This document shows, piece after piece, positions 21,535-64,000 of a DNA stretch of 64,000 nucleotides. The translations under genes and the position numbers were made by a program. The stretch spans positions 611 to 64,610 of the forward strand of contig JAQIBY010000139.1 of NCBI GenBank assembly GCA_027858835.1. The letters are read 5' to 3'. The notes under the pieces are model-generated. The model was not told where the DNA came from. It saw only the letters and a program-made list of their open reading frames with translations, and made no database searches. The first letter of the stretch is position 1; each line of letters begins with the position of its first letter. The stretch comes from Bacteroidales bacterium (GTDB taxonomy: Bacteria > Bacteroidota > Bacteroidia > Bacteroidales > ML635J-15).

Positions 21535-21744
21535 ATGTTTTGTTTTTAATGACGAATTTTATTGGAATAAATGACTAAAATGATCTAGTTATTTTACTGT
21601 AGATTCATTTATCTGATTACTTTAACTCTTATGTTGTATTTTGAAAGAGATTTAAAACAATCCACAGAGTGCTTTTCGTATAAAATAATATTTATTTTGT
21701 CGCTAGTGAGCTTTTTGTATATATATTTACATAAAAAAATCACA

Positions 21745-22677: not shown

Positions 22678-22678
22678 C

Positions 22679-23014: not shown

Positions 23015-23352
23015 AAAAACTATTTGTAACTATTGTTGCAGCTTTTATGCTTTTCTCATGTGGTCAGAAACCATTGTATGATTATCGAAATTATGACAAT
23101 ACAACTTATTCATATCTGAAAAAGAATGATGAAAAAGCTGATCAAAATTTAGCAGAAACTTATGAATCCATTATTGAGAAACCTCGAGGTGAAAGGAATA
23201 CTGTCCCTCCTGGTATTTATGCTGATTATGGGTATTTATTACTGCAGTTGGATCAAACCGAGAAAGGTAAAAAAATGTTGGCACGTGAAATAGAACTCTA
23301 CCCAGAGTCTAAAATTTTTATTGATAGAATCTTAAAAAAACTTGAAGAATGA
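23011..23352 (+). CDS. DUF4810-family lipoprotein
   Basis: Lipobox LFSC; LYDYRNY, VPPGIYADYGYLLL, EIELYPES; ATGA coupling to both neighbours. Confidence 0.85.
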   Translation: MKKLFVTIVAAFMLFSCGQKPLYDYRNYDNTTYSYLKKNDEKADQNLAETYESIIEKPRGERNTVPPGIYADYGYLLLQLDQTEKGKKMLAREIELYPESKIFIDRILKKLEE

Positions 23353-24035
23353 AACGAACTATTATAATTGCATCGGTTTTTAGTGTGCTAATTTTCCTAA
23401 GTTCTTGTTCCTTTAATAAAAGCTTAAAGAAAGATGTTTATAAAGGTTTTTATGACGAGGAAAAGCTTAGTATTTTAATAATGCCTCCTGTTAATAACAG
23501 TACAAAAGTTGAAGCTAAAGAGTTTTTCCATACAACTTTAAATATTCCTTTGGCAGAGGCTGGCTATTATGTAATACCTCCATTCCTTTCTCTTGAGATT
23601 TTAAAACAGGAAAGCGCTTATGATTCTGAGAATTTTATTGATGGAAATTTATCAAAATTCGCAGAAGTGTTTGGTGCTGATCTAATTTTGTTTACTACAA
23701 TCCATACTTGGAATAAGTCTGGATTGGCATCTGTTGTGATTGTAGATGTCGAATATACAATAAAAGACGCAATAACTAGCGAGGTGTTGTTTAATAGACG
23801 TGGTAATATTAAGTATGACACAAGAGTTTCTAAGGGGTCTTCAGGTTCTTGGATTGGTGCTGCGATTAGTTTAACTGCTAATGCTATATCAACTGCGGCA
23901 ACAAAATATGTGTCTGTTGCCCGTAAATGCAATGACTATTCACTTGCTCCCTTACCCAAAGGAAAATATCACCCGAATCACAATTTGGATCAGGAAGAAT
24001 ATGCTGGACCTGCTCATTTCAAGGCGAACCTTTAA
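23349..24035 (+). CDS. DUF799/GNA1162-family lipoprotein
   Basis: Lipobox LSSC; SILIMPPVNNS, PLAEAGYYVIP, FGADLILFTTIHTW, LPKGKYHP. Confidence 0.85.
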   Translation: MKRTIIIASVFSVLIFLSSCSFNKSLKKDVYKGFYDEEKLSILIMPPVNNSTKVEAKEFFHTTLNIPLAEAGYYVIPPFLSLEILKQESAYDSENFIDGNLSKFAEVFGADLILFTTIHTWNKSGLASVVIVDVEYTIKDAITSEVLFNRRGNIKYDTRVSKGSSGSWIGAAISLTANAISTAATKYVSVARKCNDYSLAPLPKGKYHPNHNLDQEEYAGPAHFKANL

Positions 24036-37703: not shown

Positions 37704-37766
37704 AATGCTATTTTTAGCATATTGATATTAGGAGATAGTGAATATTTAACCATTAAATAATTGTAT

Positions 37767-40700: not shown

Positions 40701-43700
40701 GGCACTACTTCAGGGTCTGTGCGTGTAAGATTGCGTTTGCAGGACGATGGTTATACTACGGCTTATGATCCATGTGGATTTTCTCAATATGGTGAGGTGG
40801 AAGATTACACAATTAATATACAGTCTCCTGAAATTCCGCCAATTGCTAACTTTGCAGCTAGTCCTACCAGTACCTGTGATGGAATTGTTCAATTTACTGA
40901 TGCATCTTTAAATGCAGATACTTGGAGTTGGGATTTTGGCGATGGAAATTCATCCACAGCACAGAATCCAGTGTATACTTATACAGTTAATGGTACTTAT
41001 ACAGTTGCCCTTACAGTGAACAATGCTTATGGAAATGATACGCATACAGAAGTTGATTATGTCGTAGTTGATATGCCGGTTGCACCTACTGTAACTGATG
41101 CAGAAAACTGTGGCCCTGGGGATATGACATTAACTGTTTCCGGAACTGGAGGCACACTGAATTGGTATGATGCACCAACAGGAGGAAATCTTGTTAACAC
41201 TGGTACTTCATTAAGCGATAATTTTGCAGCTACAACTAGTTATTATGTTTCCGAAATGGTTGCCGGCGCAACGCATAATGTTGGGCTTACTGATAATACT
41301 GCAGGAGGAGATTATTACAGCGGAGCAAATGACCATGGTTGTGTTTTTAATGCATTAACTGATTTTGTTATTGAAACAGTAACCGTTTATGCTGATGGTG
41401 CGGGTGACAGAACAATCCAACTTCGTGATAATGCAGATAATGTTTTAGAAGAACTTATTGTAAGTTTAGTTGATGGTGAGAATCAGGTAGATTTGTTTTT
41501 CCCGGTTACAACAGGGACAAATTATAAACTTGTTGCTGTTGCTCCCGGAAATTTATTTTACGATAATACTGGAGTTGCATATCCTTATGAGGTGGCAGAT
41601 GTGCTAAGCATTGTCAATTCAACAGAGGATACGAGTTTTTTTATTTACTTTTATAACTGGGTAGTTTCAGAAGGTGGTTGCGAAAGCGCCAGAGAACAAG
41701 TTACTGCAACAGTGCTTGATTTACCAAGCGTTGATCTCGGTGCCGATCAAACAATTTGTGAAACAGATGATTATACTTTTGATGCCGGTGCAGGTTTTTC
41801 AAATTATGCATGGTCAAATGCTTCAAACAATCAGAGTATAACAGTTAGTACTGCAGATGTTTATTCTGTTACAGTAATGGATGCAAACGGTTGCGAAGCT
41901 GAAGATGCAGTTGAATTGTTTGTTGATGCAATGCCAACAATAACGATTGATGCAGTCGCTGATTTATGTGAAAATGAAGTAGCAGTTGCACTTTCTGCAA
42001 CACCTGCCGGTGGAAACTGGTCTGGTACGGGAGTAACTGGCAATCAATTTGATCCTTCAATTGGAGCTGGTGACTACACAATTACTTATGAAGCAAGCAA
42101 TGGCGAATGTACTGCAACGGATAATATTTCTATCCATGTAGATGCATTACCTGATGTAACAATTGATGCTGTTGGACCATTCTGTGCAGGAGATGCTGCG
42201 GTAACGTTAACTGCTGCAACTGCCGGAGGAACTTGGTCTGGTGATGGCGTAACAGGTAATCAATTCGATCCTGCTACAGCCGGTATTGGTTCACATATTA
42301 TTACTTATGAAGTGGATAATGGTGTGTGTACTGCAACTGACCAAATTACAATTGACGTAAATGTAAATGCTGATGCCACAATTGATGCAGTCGCAGATTT
42401 GTGCGAGGCAGATGCTTCAGTAACGTTAACTGCTGTCACTACCGGAGGAATTTGGACAGGTGATGGCGTTACCGGGGATACTTTTGCTCCTTCAGTTGCA
42501 GGAGCAGGTGATCATGTAATTACTTACACAATTAGTGGTGCATGTGGTGATAACGATCAAATCACAATCCATGTCGATGCAATGCCAAACATTTCAATTA
42601 CTGATCCAGGTGCTTTCTGTACAGGTGATGCTGCGGTAACACTTAGTGCAACACCTGCCGGAGGAACTTGGGATGGTAACGGTATTTCAGGGAATCAATT
42701 TGATCCTGTTGTGGCGGGTATTGGAAACCATACAATTTCTTATGAAGTTAGTAATGGAACGTGTACGACCACAGAAGATATTACATTGTATGTTTCTGAT
42801 GGATATGATGCAACAATTAATGCAGTCGCAGATTTATGTGCAGCGGATGCTCCGATTACATTAACTGCTGCTGATGCAGGTGGAACATGGTCTGGTGACG
42901 GTGTTACAGCTGATACTTTTGACCCGGCAGTAGCTGGAGAAGGCGATCATATTATAACTTATACTATTGCCGGTTCATGCGGTGACTCCGATAATATTAC
43001 CGTTCATGTGGATGCAATGCCCGATGCAACAATTGATGCTGTCGGTCCATTCTGCGTCGGTGATGCTGCGATAACTTTAACTGCTGCAACTGCAGGTGGA
43101 ACTTGGACAGGCGATGGCGTAACTGGTGATCAGTTCGATCCTTCTGCTGCAGGAATTGGAACGCATGAAATTTCTTACGAAGTGGACAATGGAGCTTGTT
43201 CAGCAACGGATATGATTACTATAGTTGTTTCCGATTATTATGATGCAACGATCGATTTAGTTGGAGATATCTGTGAAACAAATGCTCCAATTACATTAAC
43301 TGCTGCTGATGCCGGTGGAACATGGTCTGGTGACGGTGTTACAGGTGATGCTTTTGACCCGGCAGTAGCTGGAGAAGGCGATCATATTATAACTTACACT
43401 ATTTCAGGTTCATGTGGTGATAGCGACCAAATTACTATCCATGTGGATGCAATGCTTACTGCAAGTATTATCCATCCGGGAGATTTCTGTGTTGGCGATG
43501 ATCCGGTTGTTTTAACTGCAACTGAGGCTGGCGGCACTTGGTCTGGTGATGGTGTTGTCGGTGATACATTTGATCCTTCTGCAGCCGGACTTGGTGTTTA
43601 CACAATTACTTACACTATTGAAAACGGAACTTGCTCTGATTCTGATGACGTGACTGTAGTTGTCGGTGAAGAGCCCGTTGTGACTGTAGATGTTACCAAT

Positions 43701-44147
43701 GCTAGTTCTTCTTCTGCTGAAGATGGTGCTGCCACACTTAATATTTCCGGTGGAATTAGTCCATATACAATATTATGGTCAACCGGTGATGAAACAGTGA
43801 CAGTGGATAATTTAGCCGCTGGAACTTATTCTGTTATGGTTGCTGATGCAGCAGGTTGTAGTGCGAATGTTCCGGTGTTGATTGATTTCACCAACAGTAT
43901 TGCAGAGGAAAGTTTACAATTTAAATTGTATCCAAATCCTGCAAAAACTGAATTGTTTATTGAAACCAATCCGAACATGGTAAGTCGTGTGGAATTAGTA
44001 AATATGCTTGGACAAAGTATTATGACAGAAGATATTAATGGAACAATCACTGTGCTGGATGTCAGTGAATATGTTTCAGGAGTTTACTTCGTACGTATTT
44101 ATGCTTTGGATGGAGAACAACACATTAACCGAGTTGTGATTGACTAA
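37767..44147 (+). CDS. Gingipain-family (C25, Kgp-like) cysteine protease with PKD, GEVED and Ig-like repeat domains and T9SS CTD
   Basis: Propeptide (GAPDLP, RPFRYNP); FIQWKTKSGY, YVLIVGD, TDLYYG, GRMSA, NYTAH (His), IANCC (Cys), YYWEIYHNSGDPSL; three PKD domains; GEVEDY; LYPNPA CTD. Confidence 0.92.
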   Translation: MRRLISLFVAMFFIAAAFGQTGIKLSDSKTEIKLRSATQTGVQLETKLQDLKFETMLTDVGEFEGLYAGSLQKDHGISPGAPDLPVYAGLLEVPYGAEIVATVIDYDETIYNLNELGLQKIAPSQPSLSKSTDPESVQFEYDAALYGTDSWIEPEIVSTSYQGVMRGVPIGQVVVRPFRYNPATNELSVLSNIKLDISFEGADLGLTLDQKNKYYSPQFSSVYNMLLNYQPPANKDSFTSYPIKYVIVADRAFEVTLQPFIQWKTKSGYNVIEAYTDDPAVGSTTTSIQSYLQGLYDDGTASDPAPSYVLIVGDHDGDYNVPAHSGETGSHVTDLYYGCYDGGSDNIPDLFLGRMSANTTTELQNILDKIIPYEMYTIPDGTYLDRCMLIAGVDATFAPKHGDGTLSYGIREYFNEAHGFSDIYAYYYAYTSGDYHVMSSNDAGASADIISKISDGVGFANYTAHCMQYGWADPAVVNDDIAGLNNVDEYAFMIANCCLSFKFDYSDYDAFGEQILYAQDKGAVNYIGTSNNSLWDEDVYWGIGLTSLGITQANVPNHNYSNTGQGAYDGVMHEHGESFDEWFFTGGQMVFAANTQVQASTSGSKQYYWEIYHNSGDPSLMPFLTQPEAMTVSYTTPMIGNTSLNVSCEPYTYVAISQDGVLLDAKWSGANSSVTLSFPALTADGASVVATKQDRVPQVDDFTPIAADPPVADFSGTPLTIFEGESVTFTDLSSSPAEWSWTFGDGGTSTQINPVYTYNTAGTYTVSLTVTNPLDSDIETKVDYITVNPNTNPPTSDFVADQTTVTMGTTVNFTDLSANLPTSWEWTFDGGDIASSTDQNPSVVYDTPGTYTVELTASNTYGQGTTETKVDYITVTLPDYCDAGSGDAGFENISNVELGTINNGSTASTYTDFTAISTDAFAGDDLTLTVTVGGGYATDFLMVWADWNRDGDFADANEDIWTSAQGTGPYSTTITVPGGTTSGSVRVRLRLQDDGYTTAYDPCGFSQYGEVEDYTINIQSPEIPPIANFAASPTSTCDGIVQFTDASLNADTWSWDFGDGNSSTAQNPVYTYTVNGTYTVALTVNNAYGNDTHTEVDYVVVDMPVAPTVTDAENCGPGDMTLTVSGTGGTLNWYDAPTGGNLVNTGTSLSDNFAATTSYYVSEMVAGATHNVGLTDNTAGGDYYSGANDHGCVFNALTDFVIETVTVYADGAGDRTIQLRDNADNVLEELIVSLVDGENQVDLFFPVTTGTNYKLVAVAPGNLFYDNTGVAYPYEVADVLSIVNSTEDTSFFIYFYNWVVSEGGCESAREQVTATVLDLPSVDLGADQTICETDDYTFDAGAGFSNYAWSNASNNQSITVSTADVYSVTVMDANGCEAEDAVELFVDAMPTITIDAVADLCENEVAVALSATPAGGNWSGTGVTGNQFDPSIGAGDYTITYEASNGECTATDNISIHVDALPDVTIDAVGPFCAGDAAVTLTAATAGGTWSGDGVTGNQFDPATAGIGSHIITYEVDNGVCTATDQITIDVNVNADATIDAVADLCEADASVTLTAVTTGGIWTGDGVTGDTFAPSVAGAGDHVITYTISGACGDNDQITIHVDAMPNISITDPGAFCTGDAAVTLSATPAGGTWDGNGISGNQFDPVVAGIGNHTISYEVSNGTCTTTEDITLYVSDGYDATINAVADLCAADAPITLTAADAGGTWSGDGVTADTFDPAVAGEGDHIITYTIAGSCGDSDNITVHVDAMPDATIDAVGPFCVGDAAITLTAATAGGTWTGDGVTGDQFDPSAAGIGTHEISYEVDNGACSATDMITIVVSDYYDATIDLVGDICETNAPITLTAADAGGTWSGDGVTGDAFDPAVAGEGDHIITYTISGSCGDSDQITIHVDAMLTASIIHPGDFCVGDDPVVLTATEAGGTWSGDGVVGDTFDPSAAGLGVYTITYTIENGTCSDSDDVTVVVGEEPVVTVDVTNASSSSAEDGAATLNISGGISPYTILWSTGDETVTVDNLAAGTYSVMVADAAGCSANVPVLIDFTNSIAEESLQFKLYPNPAKTELFIETNPNMVSRVELVNMLGQSIMTEDINGTITVLDVSEYVSGVYFVRIYALDGEQHINRVVID
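41922..43665 (+). repeat. Eight tandem 72-73 aa Ig-like repeats in the C25 protein
   Basis: Consensus D(A/P)TIDAVxxxCxxDAxxTLTAxxAGGTWSGDGVTGDxFDPxxAGxGxHxITYxxxxGxCxxxDxITIHV occurs eight times. Confidence 0.92.
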
Positions 44148-50710: not shown

Positions 50711-52783
50711 CTATTTTACAAATCGTTTGACGGCAGTCCCTGATTCGGTGACAATTTTAAGCATGAAAATGCCGGTATTTTCTTTTGGAATCAGGTGTGA
50801 GATATCTGTTACGGCAGAATGATTAATTTCAGTTTTATTTAATAATCGTCCCGTCATGTCGTAAAGTTCGAGATACATTTTCCCTGTACGCTCTGATTTA
50901 AGCATAAGTTTTTCATCCATAGGAATCGGGAAAAGGCTGAATTCATCTGACAATTTATTTGTTTCAATGCTGTTGTATGTGTTTATTGAAATATCATCAA
51001 TGTACATTCGGTTTCCGTCTTTGCTGAGAAAATCAAATCGAATTCGCAGGTTATCAGCATGTTTGAATAGTGTTTCATTGATTGGAAATTCTTCGTCTCT
51101 CCATTCCGTGTTTTCAGGAATAAAGCTTGAAAATGAATGATAATTATTGGCAGTATGAAGTGTGTTTCCGGATTTGTAATATTGTATTGTCCATGATTCA
51201 CCGCAATTCTGAGAGACATATGCTTTTAAAACGTCAGTATTGTTTGTTTCTTTTTGAGAATATGCCATTTTAAATTGCAGTTTCATAGGGAAATCTGTAC
51301 TGTCAATAATAATCGCCGGTGTAACAACCGAATTTGCGATGTTGTAAGGTTCATAGCGCGGATCAATCATGAGAGAATGTTGTCCCGAATACCCAGCGAG
51401 ATCTGTATATTGCCATCCTGTTTCTCCATTTTTTATGAAGAAATAATCACTAGACTCGAAATCTGCAGTATTTGGAAAATCCTCAGACTCTAAATCGTCA
51501 TAATATGGTAATGAAAATCCGCTTTCTGCAGAATATACCCGAATTGCTTGTGTAACTGTTTTCTCAGAGTTATCTGTTGGGTTTGTCACTGTTAAGCTGA
51601 CATCGTATATTCCACTTTCTTGGTAACTTACGTTTGGGCTTTTTTCCATGGAGTTGGCCGGTGTTCCACCATCAAATTGCCAGGAATAACTGCTGATTGA
51701 ATCGGTCTGATAAGTTAAGTCTGTATAGTTAACCAGCATTCCTTCACAACCGGAACTAATATTGTAAGAAAAATCTGCAATTGGGGCACAAATCTCTGCC
51801 GTTTCAGGGTTAAGGACGCCGGTTGCAATTAAATTTGATTCTTGCCAAAGCTGATTTCTATCACTGGCTCCTGAGTTAAGAGCGGCGCGCATCATTGCTC
51901 CTTGTCCTAGGGTAAACATTTTGGAACAATAGGCATAGTCCATGTGATTTTGGACATTGTCAAGGCTTCCACAGCTCACATTATACAGATTGCAAGACGT
52001 GTTCCCAATGGTGTTTGGTGTATCATCAATTCCATCATCAATTCCGCAATTGCTACCAATTTCAGGATCATTTGTTGAACCCCATGGGTGAGCAAGGTTT
52101 AGATAGTGCCCGGTTTCGTGTGTTAATGTTCTGGATCGACCCACACTGCCTGTTCCAATGCTCCCAACGTAGGAATGCGTGATTAGGATGCCATCTCGAC
52201 CATCACCGGCGGTTCCAGGGTAATAAGAATATCCGGCAACGCCACCAGGGATTGATCTGACTACCCATATGTTTAAATATTGTGATCTCGGCCACGACGG
52301 TGCAATTTCTTTTATCTGCTCTCCACCATTCGATGTTTCATACGATTGTGTGCGGGTTATACCATTGGAGCAATTTCCCCAAGGATCTTTTTTTGCAAGA
52401 CGAAACTCAATTTGTGCATCGCCTGCAATTGCTTTAAATTCATCAAGGATTTGTGATGTATCCGAATTCATTAGCCGAAAATCTTCAGTCATAATGCGGA
52501 CTCCGTCAGCAACTTGTTCGTAACCAATGTTTTCCGATCCGTAATTATGCACGACATGAAAAACAACAGGGATAATGTAAATCTGGTCTTCGCGAGGATT
52601 GGATTTGATATAATTTTCAACAAATTCTGCGAGTTTTGCTCTTTCCGCACGTGCCCCAGGGTGATTTTCTAAATACTTTCGATTCATTTCAGGTGTTGCA
52701 CATTTAAACGGCTGTTCCTGTGCATCAATATCTGTTGAAAATAACCCAAAAAGAATAAGTAGGCTCAGTATTGTGTGTCTCAT
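50711..52783 (-). CDS. M43 (pappalysin/ulilysin-like) zinc metalloprotease with PKD domain and T9SS CTD
   Basis: Cys-switch KCAT, IPVVFHVVH, YLNIWVV, HETGHYLNLAH, Met-turn NHMDY, FTLGQ; CTD LFPIPM...KRFVK. Confidence 0.93.
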   Translation of the reverse strand: MRHTILSLLILFGLFSTDIDAQEQPFKCATPEMNRKYLENHPGARAERAKLAEFVENYIKSNPREDQIYIIPVVFHVVHNYGSENIGYEQVADGVRIMTEDFRLMNSDTSQILDEFKAIAGDAQIEFRLAKKDPWGNCSNGITRTQSYETSNGGEQIKEIAPSWPRSQYLNIWVVRSIPGGVAGYSYYPGTAGDGRDGILITHSYVGSIGTGSVGRSRTLTHETGHYLNLAHPWGSTNDPEIGSNCGIDDGIDDTPNTIGNTSCNLYNVSCGSLDNVQNHMDYAYCSKMFTLGQGAMMRAALNSGASDRNQLWQESNLIATGVLNPETAEICAPIADFSYNISSGCEGMLVNYTDLTYQTDSISSYSWQFDGGTPANSMEKSPNVSYQESGIYDVSLTVTNPTDNSEKTVTQAIRVYSAESGFSLPYYDDLESEDFPNTADFESSDYFFIKNGETGWQYTDLAGYSGQHSLMIDPRYEPYNIANSVVTPAIIIDSTDFPMKLQFKMAYSQKETNNTDVLKAYVSQNCGESWTIQYYKSGNTLHTANNYHSFSSFIPENTEWRDEEFPINETLFKHADNLRIRFDFLSKDGNRMYIDDISINTYNSIETNKLSDEFSLFPIPMDEKLMLKSERTGKMYLELYDMTGRLLNKTEINHSAVTDISHLIPKENTGIFMLKIVTESGTAVKRFVK

Positions 52784-53449: not shown

Positions 53450-53590
53450 TGTTTGTTTTAGTAGATAAAGCAAAAAACCTGCAATTTGTTCACCTGATCT
53501 ATACTATTGTTTGGGGAGGTCGGATTTAAACATAGTTGATTTTATGGATGTAAACCGGATATGCCTGAAAAATTTGTATCTTTCGGCAGC

Positions 53591-54748
53591 ATGCGAATTC
53601 TCATGATAAATTATGAATATCCACCCGTTGGAGGTGGTGCAGGTGTGATTGCAAAACACATTGCTGAAGGACTTGTGGGACTTGGCCATGAGGTGCATGT
53701 AATAAGTGTACGCTTTGGTGATTTACCTGACAGCACCGAAGAAAATGGAGTGCAAGTTACAAGACTTAAATCGAAACGGAAATATGCATGTCAATCCAAT
53801 CCACTTGAAATGCTTTCATGGATGCGAATTGCAAAAAAGTTTTTACGCCGACATTTAAAACAGGAATCTTACGATGTTTGTTTTGCGCATTTTGCTTTGC
53901 CCGGCGGAGAAGTGGCTTACAGTATGAATCTTGAGTTTGGATTGCCATATGTTGTTATGTCTCACGGACACGATCTTCCTTGGTTTTTCCCAAAACAGAT
54001 GTGGTTTTATCATACCCTAACGTATTTTTGGATTCGTAAGATTGTGTTGAATTCTAAGGCATTATTTGTGCAATCTGATGTAATGGAAACCAATGCTCGC
54101 TTATTTCTTGGCAAGCAAAAGTCTAAGCTAATTAAACAGATTCCCAATGGTTGGGATGCCGATTTTTATTTTCCGGATTTCAGTAAGAAATCAGACACTT
54201 TTACCTTGCTTTTTCCGGGACGATTAGTGAAACAAAAAGATCCATTTACAGTGTTAAAAGCAGTACAGCGTTTAAATACAGAGATCTCCGATTTGAAACT
54301 TCGGGTTTTAGGTGATGGACCGCTTCGAAAGCCGATGGAAGCTTGGGTAAAATCAAAAAATTTGCAAAATACGGTATGTTTTGAAGGCTGGATGGATAAA
54401 GTGCGAATGCGGGATGCATATCAAACTTGTTCGATGGTTGTTTTGCCTTCGCTGAATGAGGGAATGAGCATGGCAACTCTGGAGGCAATGGCTTGCGGAA
54501 CGTATGTAGTTGTTACAGATGTTAGCAGAAATACATTGTTGGTAAAGCCCGGAGTGAATGGATTGATTATTGGGATGCAGGATGATAAAGCGCTTGCAGA
54601 AGCAATATTGGATTATTATACCGAAAATCATTTAAACGATTATCAGGTGCCTCAATCGTCAATTGACAAATTATCAGAAATTTATTCTTGGGACACTGTT
54701 GTGAAACAATATGACGAAGTGTTGAGTGAGCTAAAGGGGGAAAAGTAG
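53591..54748 (+). CDS. GT4 glycosyltransferase
   Basis: MRILMINYEYPPVGGGAG, GRLVKQKD, PSLNEGMSMATLEAMACG (EX7E). Confidence 0.93.
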   Translation: MRILMINYEYPPVGGGAGVIAKHIAEGLVGLGHEVHVISVRFGDLPDSTEENGVQVTRLKSKRKYACQSNPLEMLSWMRIAKKFLRRHLKQESYDVCFAHFALPGGEVAYSMNLEFGLPYVVMSHGHDLPWFFPKQMWFYHTLTYFWIRKIVLNSKALFVQSDVMETNARLFLGKQKSKLIKQIPNGWDADFYFPDFSKKSDTFTLLFPGRLVKQKDPFTVLKAVQRLNTEISDLKLRVLGDGPLRKPMEAWVKSKNLQNTVCFEGWMDKVRMRDAYQTCSMVVLPSLNEGMSMATLEAMACGTYVVVTDVSRNTLLVKPGVNGLIIGMQDDKALAEAILDYYTENHLNDYQVPQSSIDKLSEIYSWDTVVKQYDEVLSELKGEK

Positions 54749-55198: not shown

Positions 55199-56742
55199 CT
55201 ACATATTAGACACTTTTAGCACCTGAGTTTTATTGTCACATTTAAACTTAACTAGATGAACGCCGGATGCATTTATTTGTAGTTTTATGCGTGTATTGTT
55301 TGTTGCCTTGTCTTTTTTCTGAACGGAAATTCCTTGGATATTAAAGATACTAAGTTCACTAATTTTACAAGCATTTGGATTGTTGAGATAGTATTGTCCT
55401 TTTTCTTTTGTGATGCTTATTTTTTCGTGTTTAGATTGATTTATTCCGATGAAATCCCCTGTTGTAAAGCTTTGGATGTTGCATGTTTTCGCACTGAAAT
55501 CTCCATAATATGGTGTGACAGTCCAAAAATATGTTGTATTCGGATTCAAATCTGCAAAGGTGTAATCTCCGGTATTGCCTACAAATTCCACAAAATGATT
55601 TATTGGAGGGTTATCTGTTCCTATGCTTAGCTGATAGCTATTCGCTAATTCATCGGTTTCCCAAACCAACAGTGCTTCATTATGATTCACGTTTGTTGCT
55701 TAATGTGCAGGAGAATTCATGCTTACACATTGCAAGGGATTTTCTGTCCACGGAAGCCCAAGATTGTCCATATAATGATTGCTTGTCCAAAATGATGTTG
55801 AGTTGCTGTGGACTGCAATGCGAATTACCTGTCCGGCATAATCCGATAAATCGTAATTGAAGGCTATCCATTTTCCGAGCAAATAATAAGTTGGGACTAA
55901 AACTTCGGTGAAATCTGCAGTATTTGTCCTGCTATGCTGTTTTCAGTTCCATATTTTACCTCCAATCGCTCATAAGCACCTTGGGCAAGTGCATTATAGT
56001 AGAAAGAAATTTTGTACAAATTGTCATTATTCATTGGCAATGCCGGTGAAATAAAGTAGCTGTCTTTTGGGTCAGTAACATTAAGCGAAATCGAAAAAAA
56101 TCCATTGCTTCCGGCATTTCCATTTCTGGCATCTGTATATCCTGTATGCCATTCATTTGATTCGGTTGTGGTACTTCCGTTTAATACTGTCCATCCACCG
56201 GGAAGTACAGCATTCGGATTCTCAAAATCAACGGCATAGGGATATAAATCAGCTTGTGTGGTAAAAGAAAAAATATCACATCCTGAGCTTTGTCCAAGTG
56301 AGTTTTCTGCAATGATTTGCCAATAGTAGGTTTCGTTCGGATTTAATTGTGCTGTCAGTGAATAAATGCTGTCAAGTCCGGTAGAAACAGAATCCAATAG
56401 GTTGCTTGGGGGATAATTTGTGCCGAGACAGATTTTGTAATTCGCTGATAAATTGCTTTGTGTCCATTGAAAATACGGATATAAGCCCACTTCTGTGGCA
56501 TTATCCTGAGGATAGTTTAAGCTTACACAATCCGGTGTGCTAATAGGTTCTGTTTGTCCTTTTGCAACGCCTGATAAAGAAGACACTGTGGCAGTATATG
56601 TCCAGCCCTGATTTCCGAGATTTCCCGACCATTCAGATGGAATTTTAGTGTCAAATCCCTCATTAATTTTCCATTGTGCAGAACTTTCTAAACTCAAAAT
56701 GCCGAATAACACAGCAAATAGAAACCAATAAATACTTTTCAT
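55199..56742 (-). pseudogene. Disrupted T9SS cargo gene (cleaved-adhesin-like and FN3-like domains)
   Basis: Three ORF pieces join into one protein: signal peptide at 56742, frameshift near 55925, in-frame TAA at 55700-55702, CTD-like end (SIFNIQG...QVLKV). Confidence 0.8.
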
Positions 56743-56900: not shown

Positions 56901-57707
56901 TTATAAGTATTTATTGAATACATAACCAAGTAAGCTGGTGCGGTACAAATAGTGCAATTTTCTATTTGATTTAGCTTTTTTGTGAAGGATATCGTAGGTT
57001 TCCAAAAAGTTGCTTAATAAGGAATTATTAATAACACGAAGTTTGGATATTTTATTTCTGCGCCATTCTTCATTAACCCAATGAATCATATGCCATTCTG
57101 AAGGAATCTCCGGATTTGAAACAAGAAATTTTCTGATTAAATTCCAGCTGTCAGGGTTTGTAAATTCTCTCACATATTTTATCAATCCAAATTTTTCTAC
57201 ATTATCTGCCAGAATTTGGATTGGCAAATGCCAATCGCTGTTGTTTTCGTTAATTTTAGCATGTGCTTCTTCATAACATGCTTTCATTAAGTCTGATTTT
57301 GGCGGAACTTTCATGATATTTCCCACCAAAGGCAGGCTATGATGTGTCCTGAAAACATATTCATCCTCAAAATCAGGAGTTTTCAGGCAGGTGACATCCA
57401 TGTCTGTCCACCAACCACCATGTTCATACAATAATTTGTAGCGAAAAACATCAGAGAACCCTGCATAAGAGCCTTTCCCATGTCCGAATTGGTTTTTATA
57501 TTTATATTTAAAAACTTCATGTCGAGGAATGATTTCAGAGGCATTTTCAATAATCACTTTCTTAGGAATTTCAGTAACCAACGGATTATACAGCCACAAG
57601 TGGAATTCAAAGCCGTGGGCGATAAACGACTTGATTGTTAGCAATTCCACAAATGAAAGCTGATTACCAATCCAAAGGGCATGAATATGTTGCTTGTCTT
57701 TTGCCAC
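56901..57707 (-). CDS. DXD-motif glycosyltransferase (GT32/Gly_transf_sug-like)
   Basis: IHALWIG, FSDVFRYKLLYEHGGWWTDMDV. Confidence 0.88.
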   Translation of the reverse strand: MAKDKQHIHALWIGNQLSFVELLTIKSFIAHGFEFHLWLYNPLVTEIPKKVIIENASEIIPRHEVFKYKYKNQFGHGKGSYAGFSDVFRYKLLYEHGGWWTDMDVTCLKTPDFEDEYVFRTHHSLPLVGNIMKVPPKSDLMKACYEEAHAKINENNSDWHLPIQILADNVEKFGLIKYVREFTNPDSWNLIRKFLVSNPEIPSEWHMIHWVNEEWRRNKISKLRVINNSLLSNFLETYDILHKKAKSNRKLHYLYRTSLLGYVFNKYL

Positions 57708-58109
57708 AGGGTAAAGTTACAAAAGCTTTGGCAGATTGCAAGCTAAAAATTAATGCAGTTTTAAACTAAAGAGTATTGTTTAAATGATTGTTTTTTCAAA
57801 TGAATGGTGGGAATATTTAATAAATCCTAGTATTTGCAGTGTTAATCCTAAAAAAAGGACCAATTCCCCAACATTTATAGTTGCCAATGATTTTTATAAG
57901 AGATTGTTTTGGTATTCGTTTCATATTGGCTGGCTATTAAATTGTTGGGACGTTAATTTAATGCTGTAAATATAATAAATTGTTTTAAGATGATTTCCTT
58001 CAGAAATTGGATGTGAAACCTTTCTAAAATTGGAATAATCTATTTTGAGATTTAGTAATATTTAAGTCAAAATTAGTTGCTTCATAATTTTATTATCGAA
58101 ATCTTCGAA

Positions 58110-59966
58110 TTATGAGGATTGTGTTTCTAATAGCTTAAAAACTTCTGATTCGTTTTTGTTTTTTATTTCGTTAATGATTTTTTTAGTTTGTACTTGTTCA
58201 AGTTGTGTTAGTATTTGATGTAATTCCCATTCATTTGAAAATTTATTTAATACTGATTTTAGTTTATGTATTATTTCTGTATCTTTTGATGTTTTGTCAT
58301 AACCTGATTCGGAAAAATAAGTTTCAATGCGAATAAAAATTTGATTTTTTTTCTTGCGATTTACTTTATCAATGTTCTGCTTTAGGTTATTGATGTATTT
58401 TTTTTGAAATGCGGAATAAATACTAACATGAAAAAATACAGCTAAAAGCCATATCAAAAAGACTGGATATGAGAAGATATCAATTATAGTAGCGATGTAT
58501 TTAGGCCATTGATGATTGAATTTCTTTTGTTTTTGTGTTGTTAAATACAATGAGTGTTGCATAAATTTTCCTGCAATAAAGTTAAAGTTTATCCATCGGC
58601 TGCTATATAATTTGTCTGCATAATATTTTTGAAGTTCTCTGGTTGCAAGTGTGTTTCCTCCTTGTTTGCAATACCATTGCTCTGAGCGAGGATTTAAAAT
58701 GCTATACTTTTCCGGGAATTTGTAAGTTCTGGAACCAGCTAAAATTTTACAGGTTGCAATAGATGGTTTAATATTATACTTGATAAATCCTTTAATGAAA
58801 CATAGCGTTTTTAAATAACTCATTACATTTTCACCGGGAAAACCAACAATAATGTTAAAATTAAAAGAAATTCCAATTTTATAAATGTATTTTAGTTTAC
58901 GTCGTGCAAGTTTTGGAGTAAACTGTTTATTCATCTTTTTTAAAATCCGTTTGCTGCCGCTTTCAATGCCAAAATTGAGATACGAACATCCTGATTGTTT
59001 CATCAATTGAAATATGTCTTTTTCAAGCGAATAATGAACTGCAATTTGAGATGTCCACTTAATATTTGGGGTGTCTTTAATCAGGTTGTGGCATAATTCT
59101 CTGAGGTAATCTGCTTTTCCGCCAATATTAGAGCCAGTAAACCAAAGGGTATTTACAGGGTAATTTTGCTTTAAGTGAAAGTTGATTTCATTTGTGATTT
59201 GTTTTGGATCACGAACTGTGTATTTTTTGTATGCTTTACATTCGTAACAAAATGCGCATCGATTGGTACAGCCTTTAGTTACGAGTATGGGTAAATATTC
59301 AAAGCGATATTGAGAGGTGTTGAAGCAATTAAACGCTGAAATCGGAATTGCTGAAATATCGCTGGTTGCATCCCCTGTATAGTATGGAAATGATTTCTGT
59401 AATGAACGTATATAATATCCTGGTGTTTCAGTAAAGCGTGAATGCTTGTTGTAAAACGTTAATAAATCTGGCAATGACTGATCTCCATCGGCAGTGCAAA
59501 ACACATCCACTTCCGGCATGTTGTGAATTATATTTTCAGTTTTCCCGAAAGCATTGAAGCAGTATGGTCCGCCCCAAATCGTAAGCATTTTAGGAAATGT
59601 TTTTTTTATCTCTTGGGTAAGTAAACGGGTGAAATGGAAACTTGTGTAATGCACTGTAAAACAAGCAGCAAGTTGTGGGTTTTGTCTAAAGTTTTCGAGT
59701 ATGTTGTCTATACTTTTACGTGCTAGTTGATAGGCTGTTAATGCTTTTTCCTCAGTATTCCAAAATGTGTCAATATGCGAAAAATCCCATGAGGAGATTG
59801 GAATCTCAGAATCAGGATTTTGATGCAACTGTTGGAATAAATCAATATTTAGGTCGTAGCAAGTAACTTTAAATGCTTTGTCTTTTAAAGAAGCTGCTAG
59901 GATACTTAAACTAAGGGGCGGAGTATCTGTAATCCAAGCCGGACATTGAATTAAAGCTATGTTCAT
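58110..59966 (-). CDS. Cobalamin-binding radical SAM protein with a C-terminal hydrophobic helix
   Basis: PPLSLSILAASLK, YDLNI, WGGPY, DGDQ B12-domain features; TKGCTNRCAFC CxxxCxxC; FGIESGS, IIVGFPGE. Confidence 0.9.
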   Translation of the reverse strand: MNIALIQCPAWITDTPPLSLSILAASLKDKAFKVTCYDLNIDLFQQLHQNPDSEIPISSWDFSHIDTFWNTEEKALTAYQLARKSIDNILENFRQNPQLAACFTVHYTSFHFTRLLTQEIKKTFPKMLTIWGGPYCFNAFGKTENIIHNMPEVDVFCTADGDQSLPDLLTFYNKHSRFTETPGYYIRSLQKSFPYYTGDATSDISAIPISAFNCFNTSQYRFEYLPILVTKGCTNRCAFCYECKAYKKYTVRDPKQITNEINFHLKQNYPVNTLWFTGSNIGGKADYLRELCHNLIKDTPNIKWTSQIAVHYSLEKDIFQLMKQSGCSYLNFGIESGSKRILKKMNKQFTPKLARRKLKYIYKIGISFNFNIIVGFPGENVMSYLKTLCFIKGFIKYNIKPSIATCKILAGSRTYKFPEKYSILNPRSEQWYCKQGGNTLATRELQKYYADKLYSSRWINFNFIAGKFMQHSLYLTTQKQKKFNHQWPKYIATIIDIFSYPVFLIWLLAVFFHVSIYSAFQKKYINNLKQNIDKVNRKKKNQIFIRIETYFSESGYDKTSKDTEIIHKLKSVLNKFSNEWELHQILTQLEQVQTKKIINEIKNKNESEVFKLLETQSS

Positions 59967-61375
59967 TTGGTTTTTTTATTTTTGATTAATAGTGCTTTTC
60001 CCTCATCAAATAAATTTTTAAACTCAAACCATGTACGTACAGTTAATATTCGTTGTAATATATAGGAAGGTCTTAAGTAGAATTTGCGTACAGCCTTAAC
60101 CTTTAATTTAAATAATTCTTCATTTGTGAATTTTTGATTTTTCCAGATTGGTTTACTCGCAGACGATTCCGTTTCCCAATGGTCAGTTTCTATTATTCCC
60201 ATTTCAATGGCATTTTTGCGAAATTCGGTTCCGAAACGTGGTGAAACAATGTTAAAAGATGCATAGTCTATTGGTAGTTTCCGAGCAAATTTTGCAGTAG
60301 CACAAACAGAATCACGTGTTTCTCCGGGAAATCCAAGCATGAAAAACCCTCCAACTTTTATTCCTGCCTTTTTGATTTGTTTTATTGATTGATATGTTTC
60401 TGAAGTCTTAATTGTTTTTTTATGTTTGTGTAATACCTCTTCATTTGCTGATTCAATTCCAATCATTAAGGTATGACATCCGGACTTTTTCATTTTAATT
60501 AATAGTGAGTCTTCCAAAACATCTGTGCGGGAAAGAGCGGTAAACGAAAACTTCAAATCAGATTCATGCATTGCATCTAGCAGTTGGTGAGTGCGTGTTT
60601 TGTTGACTCCAAAGGTTTGGTCGCGGATATAAAGCTCCTTAACTCCCAAGATTTTTAGTTTTTTTAGTTCTTCAATAACATCTGGTATAGGTCTTAATTT
60701 GAATCCAAGCGTGCTTACAGGGCAAAAATCACATGCATATGGACATCCAAAATCGGTAAGAATACTTGCAAAAGGTTTTCGCTGCGCAAAGGGAAAGTGA
60801 TAGGCATTAAGATTAAATTTCTCCCACTGAGGAGTAGGAACTTGCCATTCTCCCTTGCCATGTTTTTCTTTTCCTATAATGAGCTTATTGTCAGATCGGT
60901 ATATGATATTAGGGATGATTTTATTTGTTGTCCTTTTCAGATAGCTTAGAATGTCATCCGATGAAAAATCAAATAAAATTGCATTTAAAAATGGGTTGTC
61001 AGTTAGTGCGTTTTCTTTAAAATCTCTGAAAACATCTCCTGTCGCAATGATTTTGCAATGATTTAGTTCTTTTTTTACTGCCTCGATAAATGTCATGTCT
61101 TCAGCGTAAGAGGGGGCTGAACTTAAAAACACAATAACATTTGGGTTCAAATTTAAAACCTGATTGACACATTCATTTTTTGACAATTTTTCAGCAATAG
61201 CGTCGATGACAAAGATATTTCCAAATTCTGCCAGTCTGCCGCTTAAATACACTAAATCAATCGGATGGTAATAATATTTTGCTTTGGATACTTTTGCACA
61301 ATAGTAATCCCGAAAATACATTTTACTTCCAGGTGGATTTAAAAGCAATATTTGATTTGTTTTAGTGTGTATCAT
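59963..61375 (-). CDS. Cobalamin-binding radical SAM protein (BchE/HpnJ-like architecture)
   Basis: ILLLNPP, HPIDLVYLSG, VIDAIAE; GCPYACDFC; IGIESA, FMLGFPGET. Confidence 0.9.
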   Translation of the reverse strand: MIHTKTNQILLLNPPGSKMYFRDYYCAKVSKAKYYYHPIDLVYLSGRLAEFGNIFVIDAIAEKLSKNECVNQVLNLNPNVIVFLSSAPSYAEDMTFIEAVKKELNHCKIIATGDVFRDFKENALTDNPFLNAILFDFSSDDILSYLKRTTNKIIPNIIYRSDNKLIIGKEKHGKGEWQVPTPQWEKFNLNAYHFPFAQRKPFASILTDFGCPYACDFCPVSTLGFKLRPIPDVIEELKKLKILGVKELYIRDQTFGVNKTRTHQLLDAMHESDLKFSFTALSRTDVLEDSLLIKMKKSGCHTLMIGIESANEEVLHKHKKTIKTSETYQSIKQIKKAGIKVGGFFMLGFPGETRDSVCATAKFARKLPIDYASFNIVSPRFGTEFRKNAIEMGIIETDHWETESSASKPIWKNQKFTNEELFKLKVKAVRKFYLRPSYILQRILTVRTWFEFKNLFDEGKALLIKNKKTK

Positions 61376-62375
61376 TTATACCCGCTGAAGTAATGTTTTT
61401 ATCCTCTTGATTATTAATGTTTTGCATTTCTTTAATGTAGTATTGTTTTGCATTGCCTTGTTGGTGGTAAATCCGAATTAATACTTCGCTTTGAATTCCC
61501 ATTAAGCCTAAAATTATCGTAATCAAAATAAATAAAACAGTTAATAAAAGCATAGGGTTTCCTGTCATATCAGTACCCCAAAATATTTTCATTAAAATTA
61601 CAGCTAATCCAGAGATGACACCAAGTAGCAAGCTGACAATTGCAAACCCGCCATAAAGATAAATTGGCTTTGTGCTGAATGAACGCATAAATTGCACCGT
61701 AATCAAGTCAAGCAGCACTTTAAATGTACGATTCAGACCGTAATGTGATTTTCCATGTTTACGTGGGTTATGATTTACCGGTATTTCAGTGATTTTTGCC
61801 CCGATTCGGGCTGCGAGAACAGGTAAAAAACGATGCATTTCTCCATAAAGACTAATGTCTTTAAGAATTTCTCTGCGATATGCTTTTAATGAGCAACCTA
61901 GGTCATGTACTTTTACTTTGCTGATTTTTCGAATTAGATAATTTGCCAGTTTGGAAGGTATTTTCTTGAAGAACAGTCTGTCTTTTCTGTTTTTACGCCA
62001 ACCGCTTACGACATCATAACCTTCATTTAGCTTATCAATTACTGCCGGGATGTCAGCTGGGTCGTTTTGCAAATCCGCATCCATGAAAACCAGAATATTT
62101 CCTGTGGAATATTCGATTCCTGCCGCCATTGCAGCGGTTTGTCCAAAATTTCGTCGAAACCTGATAAGTTTTACATTCGGTTTTCCCAATGATAATTCCT
62201 TAAGTAACTCGTAGGAACCGTCTGTACTGCCATCATCAACAAAAATTATCTCCATCGCTTCTGAAATTGATTCTGTGTTGCTCTCAATTGCGTTAAGCAA
62301 TGGTTTTAAGTTTTCCCTTTCATTATGAACTGGAATTAGAATAGAGATGGGAAATGGTACAGCCTTTTGAGTCAT
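61362..62375 (-). CDS. ArnC/GtrB-like polyprenyl-phosphate glycosyltransferase (GT2)
   Basis: IPVHNE, VDDGSTDGS, RNFGQTAA, MDADLQNDP, YDVVSGWR, GEMHRFLP, two C-terminal TM helices. Confidence 0.93.
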   Translation of the reverse strand: MTQKAVPFPISILIPVHNERENLKPLLNAIESNTESISEAMEIIFVDDGSTDGSYELLKELSLGKPNVKLIRFRRNFGQTAAMAAGIEYSTGNILVFMDADLQNDPADIPAVIDKLNEGYDVVSGWRKNRKDRLFFKKIPSKLANYLIRKISKVKVHDLGCSLKAYRREILKDISLYGEMHRFLPVLAARIGAKITEIPVNHNPRKHGKSHYGLNRTFKVLLDLITVQFMRSFSTKPIYLYGGFAIVSLLLGVISGLAVILMKIFWGTDMTGNPMLLLTVLFILITIILGLMGIQSEVLIRIYHQQGNAKQYYIKEMQNINNQEDKNITSAGINDTH

Positions 62376-62548
62376 ATTAGATGGTTAATTTCCGAAAATA
62401 CTGTAAATATACAAAACATATTTTTAAAGTATAAGATAGATTTATAAAATTGCCAAATTGCCAATTTACTTGTTTTTTTCAACACGTTTTTTGATTATTG
62501 TGTTTTATTGTTATATTTATGTCATAGTTAATTAACGGAGTCGATTGA

Positions 62549-64000
62549 ATGTGTAAAAGGACAAATATAAACCCAATTGTATTGCTGTTTTTATTACTGC
62601 ACATTCTATTTTTACTGCTTGTTATTTTGTATGCATCAAGGACTAGTTTTGTCGGAGAAATTGAATTATATTCAGATGACAATTTTCAGATAATTGCAGA
62701 AACACCTGTTGGGACGACAATTGATTTTCAAACGGATTCTTTCGATACAATTACAATTTCTGAACGAACATTTAGATGTATTGAGCTCCGAACACAAGAT
62801 GATAAGAGTGTTTTAATTGATGAGGACTTTCCAAATGACACCGTTTATACTTTTAGCAGTACTAAAATTCATTTTCAATCAACTCCTTATGTGAAATCAA
62901 AACTTTCTGGAGTTTTTCTTTTTATTATTACTAATACGCCTGCTTTAAAGCTCTATTTAAGCTTGATATTACTGGGTGTTCTGTTTTTTTTATTTCAATT
63001 TTTATTTTTAAAGAAAAAACGAAGCCTTTATAAAATCAGATATTTTAGATTTCTATTAAAACGAAAAAGTGCAAAAAGGGAAATTAAAAAACCTGTTTTA
63101 AATCGCATACAATTTATTTTAGTGGTTGTCGGATTAATTGCTATTATACCTGCTTCTTATCTTAGGCTTGGGCAGTATCCATTTTCGCAAGGTTCAGAAG
63201 AAAGGAGAAGAGCTCTTGTAAGCCTTGAAATGAAGATACAACACGAGTATTTAAAACCTACTGTATGTGGGGAGCCATATTTTAATAAACCTCCACTGTT
63301 TAATTGGTTTTTAATCCCATTTGTGGATAAAGATAATGTTGAGTTTAATACCAGAGCAATATCAGTTAGTTTCCTATTGCTGGCAGCTTGTATTGTAATT
63401 GCATTATTGAAAAAAAGCAGAGGGTTGCGACATGCTTTGCTTGTAAGTTTTATGTTTCTCTCGTCAACTTATATAGTTACAGAGTTCTCTATGATTTTAA
63501 ATCTTGATACGTTTTTCGCTTTACTACTTATACCATTGTTTTATTTAAATTTCAGATTAGCTAATAAGGGGAAATTTTATGCAATGTTTATAATAGGATA
63601 TTTTCTTACTTCATTGGCTTTTATGACTAAAGGCTTTCCGGCACTTTGGTTTCAGGGTGTTTCTGTTATTCTTGCTTTATATTTTACGAAAAATTTGCGA
63701 AAGCTAATTAGTTTTCAACATTTATGCGGCATTTTGTCCTTTCTGATTCTACCCCTGCTTTATTTTACTTTGCAGGCTGAGTTAATTGATTCTAAGCTTT
63801 ATATAAATCAACTAATAAAGGAAACTTTAATCGCAAATAATTTCTCGTTTTCGGATATTGTATTGCACTTTTTTGCATTTCCTTTTCTAAACATACTGGC
63901 ATATTTGCCGATGGCAATACTATTGCCGGCATTATTGCTTCGCAGAAATATTATTTTAATCTTAAAAAACAAGGAAATAAGTTATCTTTTGTTTATGTGC
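62549..64000 (+). CDS. ArnT/GT83-like GT-C membrane glycosyltransferase (partial, absent from the ORF track)
   Basis: Manual translation from ATG 62549 (MCKRTNINPIVLLFLLL) continues to SEERRRALVSLEM...PTVCGEPYFNKPPLFNW and LAFMTKGFP, which are ArnT signature motifs; many TM helices; runs off the window. Confidence 0.85.
   Translation, partial: MCKRTNINPIVLLFLLLHILFLLLVILYASRTSFVGEIELYSDDNFQIIAETPVGTTIDFQTDSFDTITISERTFRCIELRTQDDKSVLIDEDFPNDTVYTFSSTKIHFQSTPYVKSKLSGVFLFIITNTPALKLYLSLILLGVLFFLFQFLFLKKKRSLYKIRYFRFLLKRKSAKREIKKPVLNRIQFILVVVGLIAIIPASYLRLGQYPFSQGSEERRRALVSLEMKIQHEYLKPTVCGEPYFNKPPLFNWFLIPFVDKDNVEFNTRAISVSFLLLAACIVIALLKKSRGLRHALLVSFMFLSSTYIVTEFSMILNLDTFFALLLIPLFYLNFRLANKGKFYAMFIIGYFLTSLAFMTKGFPALWFQGVSVILALYFTKNLRKLISFQHLCGILSFLILPLLYFTLQAELIDSKLYINQLIKETLIANNFSFSDIVLHFFAFPFLNILAYLPMAILLPALLLRRNIILILKNKEISYLLFMC

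Follow-up and report, generated by a model that had tools for sequence, protein, structure and literature searches.

A candidate carrier-lipid glycosylation module with radical SAM enzymes at the end of a Bacteroidales contig

Genes of the locus

The gene content of a 64,000-nucleotide stretch of a Bacteroidales genome (JAQIBY010000139.1; hereafter the window) was evaluated, with a focus on the glycosyltransferase (GT) and radical S-adenosylmethionine (SAM) genes between position 56,901 and its end. The window corresponds to C73:611-64610 of an assembly of 3.6 Mb in 184 contigs, with an estimated completeness of 99%. Three genes on the minus strand, encoding a GT2 and two radical SAM enzymes (rSAM1 and rSAM2), formed an operon in the order GT2-rSAM1-rSAM2. 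According to the open reading frame (ORF) coordinates, GT2 and rSAM1 overlapped by 14 nt and rSAM1 and rSAM2 by 4 nt. A GT32 gene lay downstream, and a GT-C gene diverged from the operon (Table 1). Coordinates and Pfam matches confirmed this placement of the five genes, which had been given in a preliminary description of the window. The same description stated that the ORF track missed the GT-C; the gene was listed once open-ended ORFs were allowed.

Table 1. Coordinates of the locus features in the window
Feature	Position	Strand	Details
GT4 glycosyltransferase, convergent with the operon	53561..54748	+	PF00534, 118.9 bits
GT32-type soluble glycosyltransferase, DXD sugar-binding region	56901..57707	-	268 aa; PF04488, 33.6 bits
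AT-rich gap between rSAM2 and GT32	57708..58109		402 nt; 26.9% GC
rSAM2, class-B-like radical SAM enzyme	58110..59966	-	618 aa; PF04055, 73.6 bits
rSAM1, radical SAM enzyme with N-terminal Rossmann-like domain	59963..61375	-	470 aa; PF04055, 76.8 bits
GT2, ArnC/GtrB type, first gene of the operon	61362..62375	-	337 aa; PF00535, 127.7 bits
Divergent intergenic region between GT-C and the GT2 operon	62376..62548		173 nt; from ORF coordinates
GT-C with ArnT-like fold	62549..64000, to contig end	+	PF13231; divergent, open-ended ORF

The best NCBIfam match of GT2 was the ArnC family NF007986 (208.1 bits, model positions 8-311 of 316; 207.7 bits in the genome search), under its equivalog cut-off of 529 bits. 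The match to PgfS (152 bits) was also under the cut-off. Residues 9-316 aligned full-length to solved ArnC chains (185 bits) and to the GtrB-like protein sll0501 (130 bits), and two C-terminal transmembrane helices were predicted in addition to the GT-A catalytic domain. Because of the full-length similarity and the two helices, yet a score of 208 against a cut-off of 529 bits, GT2 is assigned by sequence to the polyprenyl-phosphate sugar synthase class (ArnC/GtrB/DPMS-like) but not to ArnC itself. This agrees with the ArnC/GtrB class given in the preliminary description. GT2 shared 62-86% identity with the GT2s of nine related Bacteroidota loci. Since three ArnC-like GT2s and six PMT_2 proteins over the cut-off were counted in the genome, the organism appears to run several carrier-lipid glycosylation pairs, of which the GT2/GT-C pair would be one. 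Other ArnC-like GT2 or PMT_2 GT-C genes of the genome were located at C148:451-951, C148:24534-25439, C52:8289-9784 and C122:1309-2235, and two of these genes were near neighbours on C52.

Both radical SAM proteins matched PF04055, and a partial TIM barrel was recovered in the AlphaFold2 (AF2) model of rSAM1 (predicted local distance difference test, pLDDT, 87.5), in agreement with membership in the radical SAM superfamily. The top NCBIfam matches of rSAM1 were HpnJ (TIGR03471, 157.3 bits, cut-off 577.6), PhpK (127 bits), BchE (106 bits) and AprD4 (NF033070, 94.8 bits, cut-off 500), and a ladderane-lipid radical SAM family was among its other strong matches. The alignment with HpnJ covered residues 32-463 of rSAM1 and positions 28-464 of 472 in the model. 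Neither rSAM1 nor rSAM2 reached a curated NCBIfam cut-off, which placed both outside characterised families; membership in such a family unrelated to glycans would have spoken against the preliminary reading. The cysteines C211, C215 and C218, in a CxxxCxxC motif, were the sole invariant cysteines among 20 diverse rSAM1 homologues; hence, rSAM1 carries no sign of an auxiliary cluster. A loop spanning R22-D40 was conserved as well. No transmembrane segment was predicted in rSAM1, and a scan for amphipathic helices returned basic amphipathic C-terminal helices that were too unspecific for a claim of membrane binding.

The closest solved protein to rSAM1 by sequence was AprD4 (85 bits). AprD4 (PDB 6fd2) was also its top fold match (E 4.5e-27, TM-scores 0.78/0.81, 20% identity), outranking the cobalamin enzymes QCMT/MgmA, TsrM, OxsB, TokK and CysS. 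According to a 2026 review, AprD4 has no bound cobalamin despite its Rossmann-like domain. The preliminary description had called the two enzymes cobalamin-dependent. This label was not borne out, with B12-binding domain (PF02310) scores of 19.3 bits for rSAM1 and 18.7 bits for rSAM2 against a cut-off of 32.1. Precomputed PF02310 matches were present in many members of both families. Cobalamin use by rSAM1 is at most putative, because PF02310 stayed under the cut-off and the nearest structure, that of AprD4, is cobalamin-free.

The best NCBIfam match of rSAM2 was the C-methyltransferase family TIGR03975 of ribosomally synthesized and post-translationally modified peptides (RiPPs), with 108.5 bits against a cut-off of 281.85. 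It was followed by PhpK (TIGR04479, 105.3 bits, cut-off 600) and ApyD (85.7 bits). A single C-terminal transmembrane helix was predicted at about residues 490-520, followed by a Lys-rich tail. The helix was kept in 17 of 17 homologues, namely the 15 closest database proteins and the copies of loci L009 and L030, the two of the nine related Bacteroidota loci in which rSAM2 occurred. A database entry that shares residues 1-516 without a difference and homologues covering 99% of the length both support the start codon. The family had 66 database matches, 13 of which, besides the entry of the window itself, exceeded 250 bits. Moreover, rSAM2 sits between two genes that abut elsewhere: orthologues of the window GT32 (562 and 466 bits) lay directly after rSAM1 in L002 and L006. 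Thus, rSAM2 is an uncommon accessory that resembles methyltransferases in sequence.

The GT-C ORF extended over 688 aa to the contig end; close homologues measured 702-728 aa, so about 20 residues are missing. Its scores against PF13231 (PMT_2) of 27.1 and 30.8 bits passed the cut-off of 26.1 narrowly, and its match to the ArnT (GT83) family NF009784 reached 41.4 bits over positions 13-222 of 539, against an equivalog cut-off of 567. Twelve transmembrane segments were predicted. The top Foldseek match of the AF2 model (pLDDT 86) in the PDB was ArnT (5f15/5ezm; E 4.5e-10, TMt 0.55-0.58), which upholds the likeness to ArnT proposed earlier. The modelled protein is classed as an ArnT/PMT_2-like GT-C fold and not as an ArnT equivalog. 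N-terminal to the core, which begins at residue 186, the model predicted a transmembrane helix (8-30), an 80-residue beta-sandwich (34-113), a second transmembrane stretch (118-154) and a basic disordered linker (157-176). By the positive-inside rule, the beta-sandwich should face the periplasm. In the first loop, E218 was conserved in at least 90% of 23 homologues, and R221, E227 and K247-P248-P249 were invariant. E218 and E227 presumably correspond to the catalytic loop of ArnT.

Recurrence of the rSAM1 neighbourhood

The distribution of the rSAM1 family was explored in protein and genome collections. Among 8000 candidates scored, 884 database proteins were members at E <= 0.001, and relatives were encoded in 161 stretches from a collection of one genome per species. 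A sample of 400 further genomes, drawn evenly from the same phylum, contained no rSAM1 at E <= 1e-80, with its own genome as the positive control. The family is rare within the phylum yet patchy across domains. The Protein Atlas showed only unnamed clusters of 'B12-binding radical SAM' proteins around rSAM1, and no curated family, solved structure or publication was found for the family.

The best 80 of the 161 stretches served as the locus sample; by record title, all of them except that of Lyngbya sp. CCY1209 were labelled as metagenome-assembled or single-cell genomes. Pfam scans covered 122 direct neighbours of rSAM1 (one oversized protein was dropped), 81 further operon members and 26 selected proteins; only part of each locus was scanned, and the counts of neighbour families are lower bounds. 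All 80 loci held an rSAM1 orthologue of at least 314 bits, and the other radical SAM proteins there scored at most 165 bits, except in L053, where the orthologue itself is split into two pieces. On these scores the family appears sharply delimited. The loci spanned more than 15 phyla, Archaea included, and the record titles named Bacteroidota, cyanobacteria, Patescibacteria, Nanoarchaeota, Methanosarcinales, Methylomirabilota, Planctomycetota, Acidobacteriota, Omnitrophota, Elusimicrobiota and others.

A GT2 gene was followed by rSAM1 in all nine Bacteroidota loci (L002-L009 and L030). The GT-C orthologue was adjacent in eight of them, and none was seen on the 3 kb available in L006. Across phyla, GT2 lay directly beside rSAM1 in 27 of the 76 loci whose gene set kept the orthologue, versus 74 of 789 other genes (9.4%), a comparison that overstates independence since the loci are related to one another. 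Eight neighbouring GT2s from other phyla were tested; the best match of each was AglJ, a dolichyl-phosphate hexose transferase or PpgS, and seven matched ArnC weakly at more than 35 bits. By these matches, all eight are of the polyprenyl- or dolichyl-phosphate sugar synthase class. Furthermore, the database protein P0114 (774 aa) is a natural fusion of an N-terminal GT2 domain with an rSAM1-family enzyme at about residues 325-751. The preliminary description had asked for recurrent synteny, and GT2 with rSAM1, in part with GT-C, recurred in Bacteroidota and many other phyla. The conserved core apparently consists of rSAM1 and a polyprenyl-phosphate sugar synthase, which a GT-C usually accompanies.

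Other Pfam families near rSAM1 were GT9 heptosyltransferases and Twitch/SPASM radical SAM proteins (11 loci each), DegT aminotransferases (seven loci) and AsnB-type amidotransferases (six loci). A second radical SAM protein with PF02310 over the cut-off was a direct neighbour in seven loci. PF01522 deacetylases, a kind that deacylates lipid-linked amino sugars, occurred in three loci. In L033 and L037 the deacetylase gene immediately precedes GT2-rSAM1, and in L012 it adjoins rSAM1. A flippase-like PF03706 protein was adjacent to rSAM1 in two loci (L015 and L018). Class I methyltransferases were present in many loci, and ten more neighbours that had no above-cut-off Pfam match were predicted to hold 6-10 transmembrane segments.

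Two further gene types were seen beside rSAM1. A radical SAM protein with an N-terminal twitch/SPASM domain occurred in six of the nine Bacteroidota loci (L005:3495-4838, L006:779-2284, L007:5075-6409, L008:5319-6665, L009:872-2377 and 2759-4111, and L030:5214-6749). The one copy tested scored 162.6 bits against NF033640, whose cut-off is 170. This protein was not found in the source genome, where tblastn with the seven copies gave weak generic radical SAM matches only. With a nanoarchaeal SPASM radical SAM protein as the tblastn query, a gene on contig C4 was matched at 156 bits. In two nanoarchaeal loci (L013:12978-13823 and L026:12988-13827), rSAM1 and a canonical B12-binding radical SAM protein were followed by an MtrA-like protein with a DUF4346 pterin-binding-like domain, which could be a corrinoid or methyl-supply partner.

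The GC content of the island was 32.6%, compared with 37.4% for the genome, which placed it in the lowest 0.7% of 1256 windows of 7.7 kb. The low-GC stretch covers 56901-64000 of the window and continues to the contig end. This low GC content, together with the patchy, cross-domain distribution of the rSAM1 family, fits a horizontally mobile module and is the basis on which horizontal spread is suggested.

Proposed pathway and its alternatives

The locus is read as a horizontally mobile, three-component-type module for periplasmic glycosylation in which radical SAM enzymes tailor the carried sugar, a reading to which we give an even chance. Judging from its family, GT2 would work at the cytoplasmic face of the membrane, where it would transfer a single sugar from its nucleotide-bound form to polyprenyl (undecaprenyl) phosphate. 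Its neighbourhood and the fusion protein suggest that rSAM1 would then alter the lipid-linked sugar at a non-anomeric carbon by 5'-deoxyadenosyl-radical chemistry. The protein rSAM2, anchored in the membrane by its own helix, may introduce one more modification, for which methylation is the most plausible candidate. A flippase would move the sugar-loaded carrier across the membrane, and the ArnT-fold GT-C would transfer the tailored sugar to a periplasmic acceptor; lipopolysaccharide or lipid A, some other glycan and a protein are the candidates. GT32 and GT4 would probably build or extend the acceptor glycan.

It is most likely that rSAM1 acts on the sugar after carrier loading, because of the fusion protein, the translational coupling, the adjacent deacetylases of the lipid-linked-sugar type, the transmembrane anchor of rSAM2 and the precedent of HpnI/K/J. 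As described in PMC13459092, that precedent comprises a GT2 that puts a sugar on a lipid, a deacetylase that acts on it and a radical SAM enzyme that rearranges the lipid-linked glucosamine. For rSAM1, the candidate reactions would be epimerisation, C-methylation and an AprD4-like removal of oxygen or water, at C2-C6. A GT-C needs a glycosyl phosphate donor, so the anomeric centre must survive and ring contraction is disfavoured. Ring contraction of the HpnJ/Cds type by rSAM1 was ranked low for this reason, as a carbocyclic phosphate could not be a donor for the GT-C.

Of the enzymes with known chemistry, AprD4 is a radical SAM 1,2-diol dehydratase of apramycin biosynthesis that shares the two-domain architecture of rSAM1 and acts on a sugar. 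Its substrate is a soluble aminoglycoside, and its partner is the reductase AprD3. Unlike AprD4, rSAM1 has no AprD3-like reductase beside it in the window, and its NF033070 score lies far under the family cut-off. The class B methyltransferases (TsrM, TokK, CysS, QCMT/MgmA, PhpK and MoeK5) also combine an N-terminal Rossmann-like domain with a radical SAM barrel. They supplied the fold matches of rSAM1 ranked 3 to 16, and PhpK and the RiPP C-methyltransferases were among the best family matches of rSAM2. In contrast to these enzymes, PF02310 stayed under the cut-off in both window proteins, and no methyltransferase cut-off was reached. The substrate that MoeK5 methylates is a sugar attached to a phospholipid-like carrier, and an AsnB-type amidotransferase acts in the same pathway; AsnB genes were likewise present near rSAM1 in six loci. 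Methylation fits rSAM2 better than rSAM1. The preliminary description took both enzymes for methylating ones. This view stood as far as rSAM2 resembles methyltransferases, whereas rSAM1 is nearest to AprD4 and HpnJ; methylation itself is an assumption.

The transfer machinery is familiar. ArnC and ArnT form the three-component example for 4-amino-4-deoxy-L-arabinose (Ara4N) on lipid A, and FlmF2/NaxD/FlmK and LgmA/C/B are three-component systems for hexosamines. The window module shares with these systems (a GtrB/ArnC-type GT2, a small flippase and a GT-C) a GT2 with two transmembrane helices that adjoins a GT-C of ArnT fold, and a PF01522 deacetylase is present in some loci related to it. Unlike them, it has one or two radical SAM genes within the operon, in translational coupling with the GT2. 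A further difference is that neither a GtrA-type flippase nor an ArnA-like gene was found in the genome, and no arnB- or arnD-like gene in the window. Three-component systems for pentofuranoses are treated in PMC11127046, and the term 'radical SAM' had no occurrence in the papers on three-component glycosylation that were found. No paper that links a radical SAM enzyme to both a GtrB/ArnC-type GT2 and a GT-C was found by full-text search, which left most subscription journals and supplements uncovered. The elements without a description in the papers found are the radical tailoring step, as proposed here, and the rSAM1 family.

Several observations weigh against the proposed pathway. In the 76 loci examined for direct neighbours, 49 had no GT2 directly beside rSAM1, and a recognised GT-C was counted in at least 25 of the 80 loci (the orthologue in eight, PMT_2 in 11 and GT87 in six), so that the coupling is frequent and not universal; the GT2 enrichment given above is inflated by the kinship of the loci. 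No flippase was found in the window, and PF04138, the GtrA flippase family, had no match in the genome (8 of 14 genomes in the control); other flippase types were not searched. The Pfam scan revealed no nucleotide-sugar genes among the window ORFs. The contig terminates within the GT-C gene, and the 614 nt beyond the window all continue it. Finally, we infer every chemical step of the module, as well as the order in which loading precedes tailoring.

The main rival, which we consider unlikely, is that the radical SAM enzymes tailor a nucleotide sugar in the cytoplasm before GT2 loads polyprenyl phosphate. DesII, which acts on TDP-sugars, works at this stage. The neighbourhood and the fusion protein tie rSAM1 to GT2 and leave the order of steps unfixed, rSAM1 has no predicted transmembrane segment, and the substrate of AprD4, the structure closest to it, is a soluble pseudodisaccharide, all of which would suit tailoring before loading. 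However, the transmembrane anchor of rSAM2 and its 17 homologues points to a membrane-bound substrate, at least for rSAM2, and deacetylases of the lipid-linked-sugar class lie between or beside the pair in L012, L033 and L037. HpnJ, the best family match of rSAM1, is a presumed ring-contraction enzyme that, according to PMC13459092, is thought to act on lipid-linked glucosamine.

A second alternative is less probable still, namely that the radical SAM enzymes and GT2 make a glycolipid or modified lipid as an end product, like the cyclitol-ether hopanoids of HpnI/J/K or the calditol of Cds, and that the GT-C is unrelated. HpnJ, which works with HpnI and HpnK on the cyclitol-ether head group of hopanoids, is the best full-length curated match of rSAM1, the alignment covering nearly its whole length, and the ladderane-lipid family matches as well. 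Moreover, the trios of GT2, deacetylase and radical SAM enzyme in L033 and L037 mirror HpnI/K/J. These points are set against a HpnJ score of 157.3 bits, far under 577.6, and a genome in which no squalene-hopene cyclase was matched; on both counts a hopanoid pathway and an HpnJ identity were ruled out. The adjacency of the GT-C in eight of nine Bacteroidota loci and its recurrence in other phyla would also be hard to explain if it were unrelated. Unlike the hopanoid system, the lipid of the window module is probably a polyprenyl-phosphate carrier feeding the GT-C.

That the radical SAM enzymes mature a ribosomal peptide or protein, which GT2 and GT-C then glycosylate, is regarded as very improbable. 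The best matches of rSAM2, to RiPP C-methyltransferases and then ApyD, and the 11 loci with Twitch/SPASM proteins near rSAM1 are compatible with it, but the RiPP family scores fall far under their cut-offs and the genes conserved alongside rSAM1 encode enzymes that handle sugars. Next to the radical SAM genes of the window there is no conserved short ORF; the related loci were not searched for short ORFs.

An ordinary ArnC/ArnT pair for Ara4N on lipid A beside unrelated radical SAM genes, suggested by ArnC and ArnT being the best named matches of GT2 and GT-C, is already contradicted by scores far under the equivalog cut-offs (208 vs 529 and 41.4 vs 567 bits), by a genome with no ArnA-like ORF and by the recurrence of the rSAM1-GT2 link across phyla and as a fusion. 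The Formyl_trans_N ORFs of the genome measured only 234 and 313 aa, and none was a fusion of ArnA size; Ara4N was ruled out as the cargo on this ground, as the preliminary description had expected. That description had also noted the lack of arnA, arnB and arnD in the window, and among the 41 window ORFs scanned no Pfam match to a formyltransferase, DegT or deacetylase was obtained. A complete Ara4N pathway was not found elsewhere in the genome: DegT genes were present on contigs C50 and C74, and ArnD was not searched genome-wide.

Under the proposed pathway of tailoring on the carrier, a broader and more doubtful claim can be put forward tentatively: rSAM1 may found a cross-domain class of radical SAM enzymes that act at the membrane surface on polyprenyl-phosphate-linked sugars and give donors existing only in lipid-linked form. 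Such donors would carry deoxy, branched or epimerised sugars, which GT-C transferases would then attach to the envelope. Bacteroidota, cyanobacteria, bacteria of the candidate phyla radiation (CPR), DPANN archaea and many candidate phyla would thereby have a means of diversifying sugars that does not depend on nucleotide-sugar pathways. In the known three-component systems, the transferred sugar is either completed at the nucleotide-sugar stage or modified on the carrier by deacylases or epimerases alone; envelope sugar chemistry would gain a new layer if a radical SAM enzyme acted on the carrier-bound sugar. The family is a defined target, with at least 161 species genomes and more than 880 database proteins, and its partners are clear. 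It also bears on surface decoration in the tiny-genome CPR and DPANN organisms.

Surroundings of the module

The PF04488 match of GT32 (residues 63-112) passed the gathering cut-off of 23, PF05704 scored 27.3 bits, and no transmembrane segment was predicted. An orthologue of GT4 (557 bits) abuts GT32 convergently in L006, and the window GT4 is probably part of the same island. A scan for promoters and terminators gave counts no higher than those of shuffles, with 31 promoter-like matches against 38.6 expected; hence, no promoter or transcript boundary is claimed.

Outside the module, the window held housekeeping genes and cargo genes of the type IX secretion system (T9SS), and the nearest relatives of the window genes were in Bacteroidales and Bacteroidota metagenome-assembled genomes. 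To judge from the T9SS sorting domains, the gingipain-like C25 peptidase and a pyruvate:ferredoxin-type oxidoreductase, the host is probably a proteolytic anaerobe of the Bacteroidota.

GT32 and GT4, which abut in L006, are separated in the window by the stretch 55199-56742 on the minus strand. The ORFs of this stretch are arranged head to tail. One encodes 281 aa, lacks a Pfam match and has a predicted hydrophobic segment at its N-terminus; two are short and in different frames; and one of 163 aa ends in a T9SS sorting domain. Together they look like a single T9SS cargo gene split by frameshifts or assembly errors. The C25 peptidase gene (37761-44147, plus strand) encodes 2128 aa with a propeptide, PKD, GEVED and Ig-like domains and a T9SS sorting tail, and further T9SS cargo genes were located at 1998-6569 and 50711-52783. 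At 21631-24035 on the plus strand, four genes encode a CsgG-like protein, a 111-aa protein of unknown type, a DUF4810 protein and a GNA1162-like lipoprotein, a set that resembles an accessory operon of curli-type secretion.

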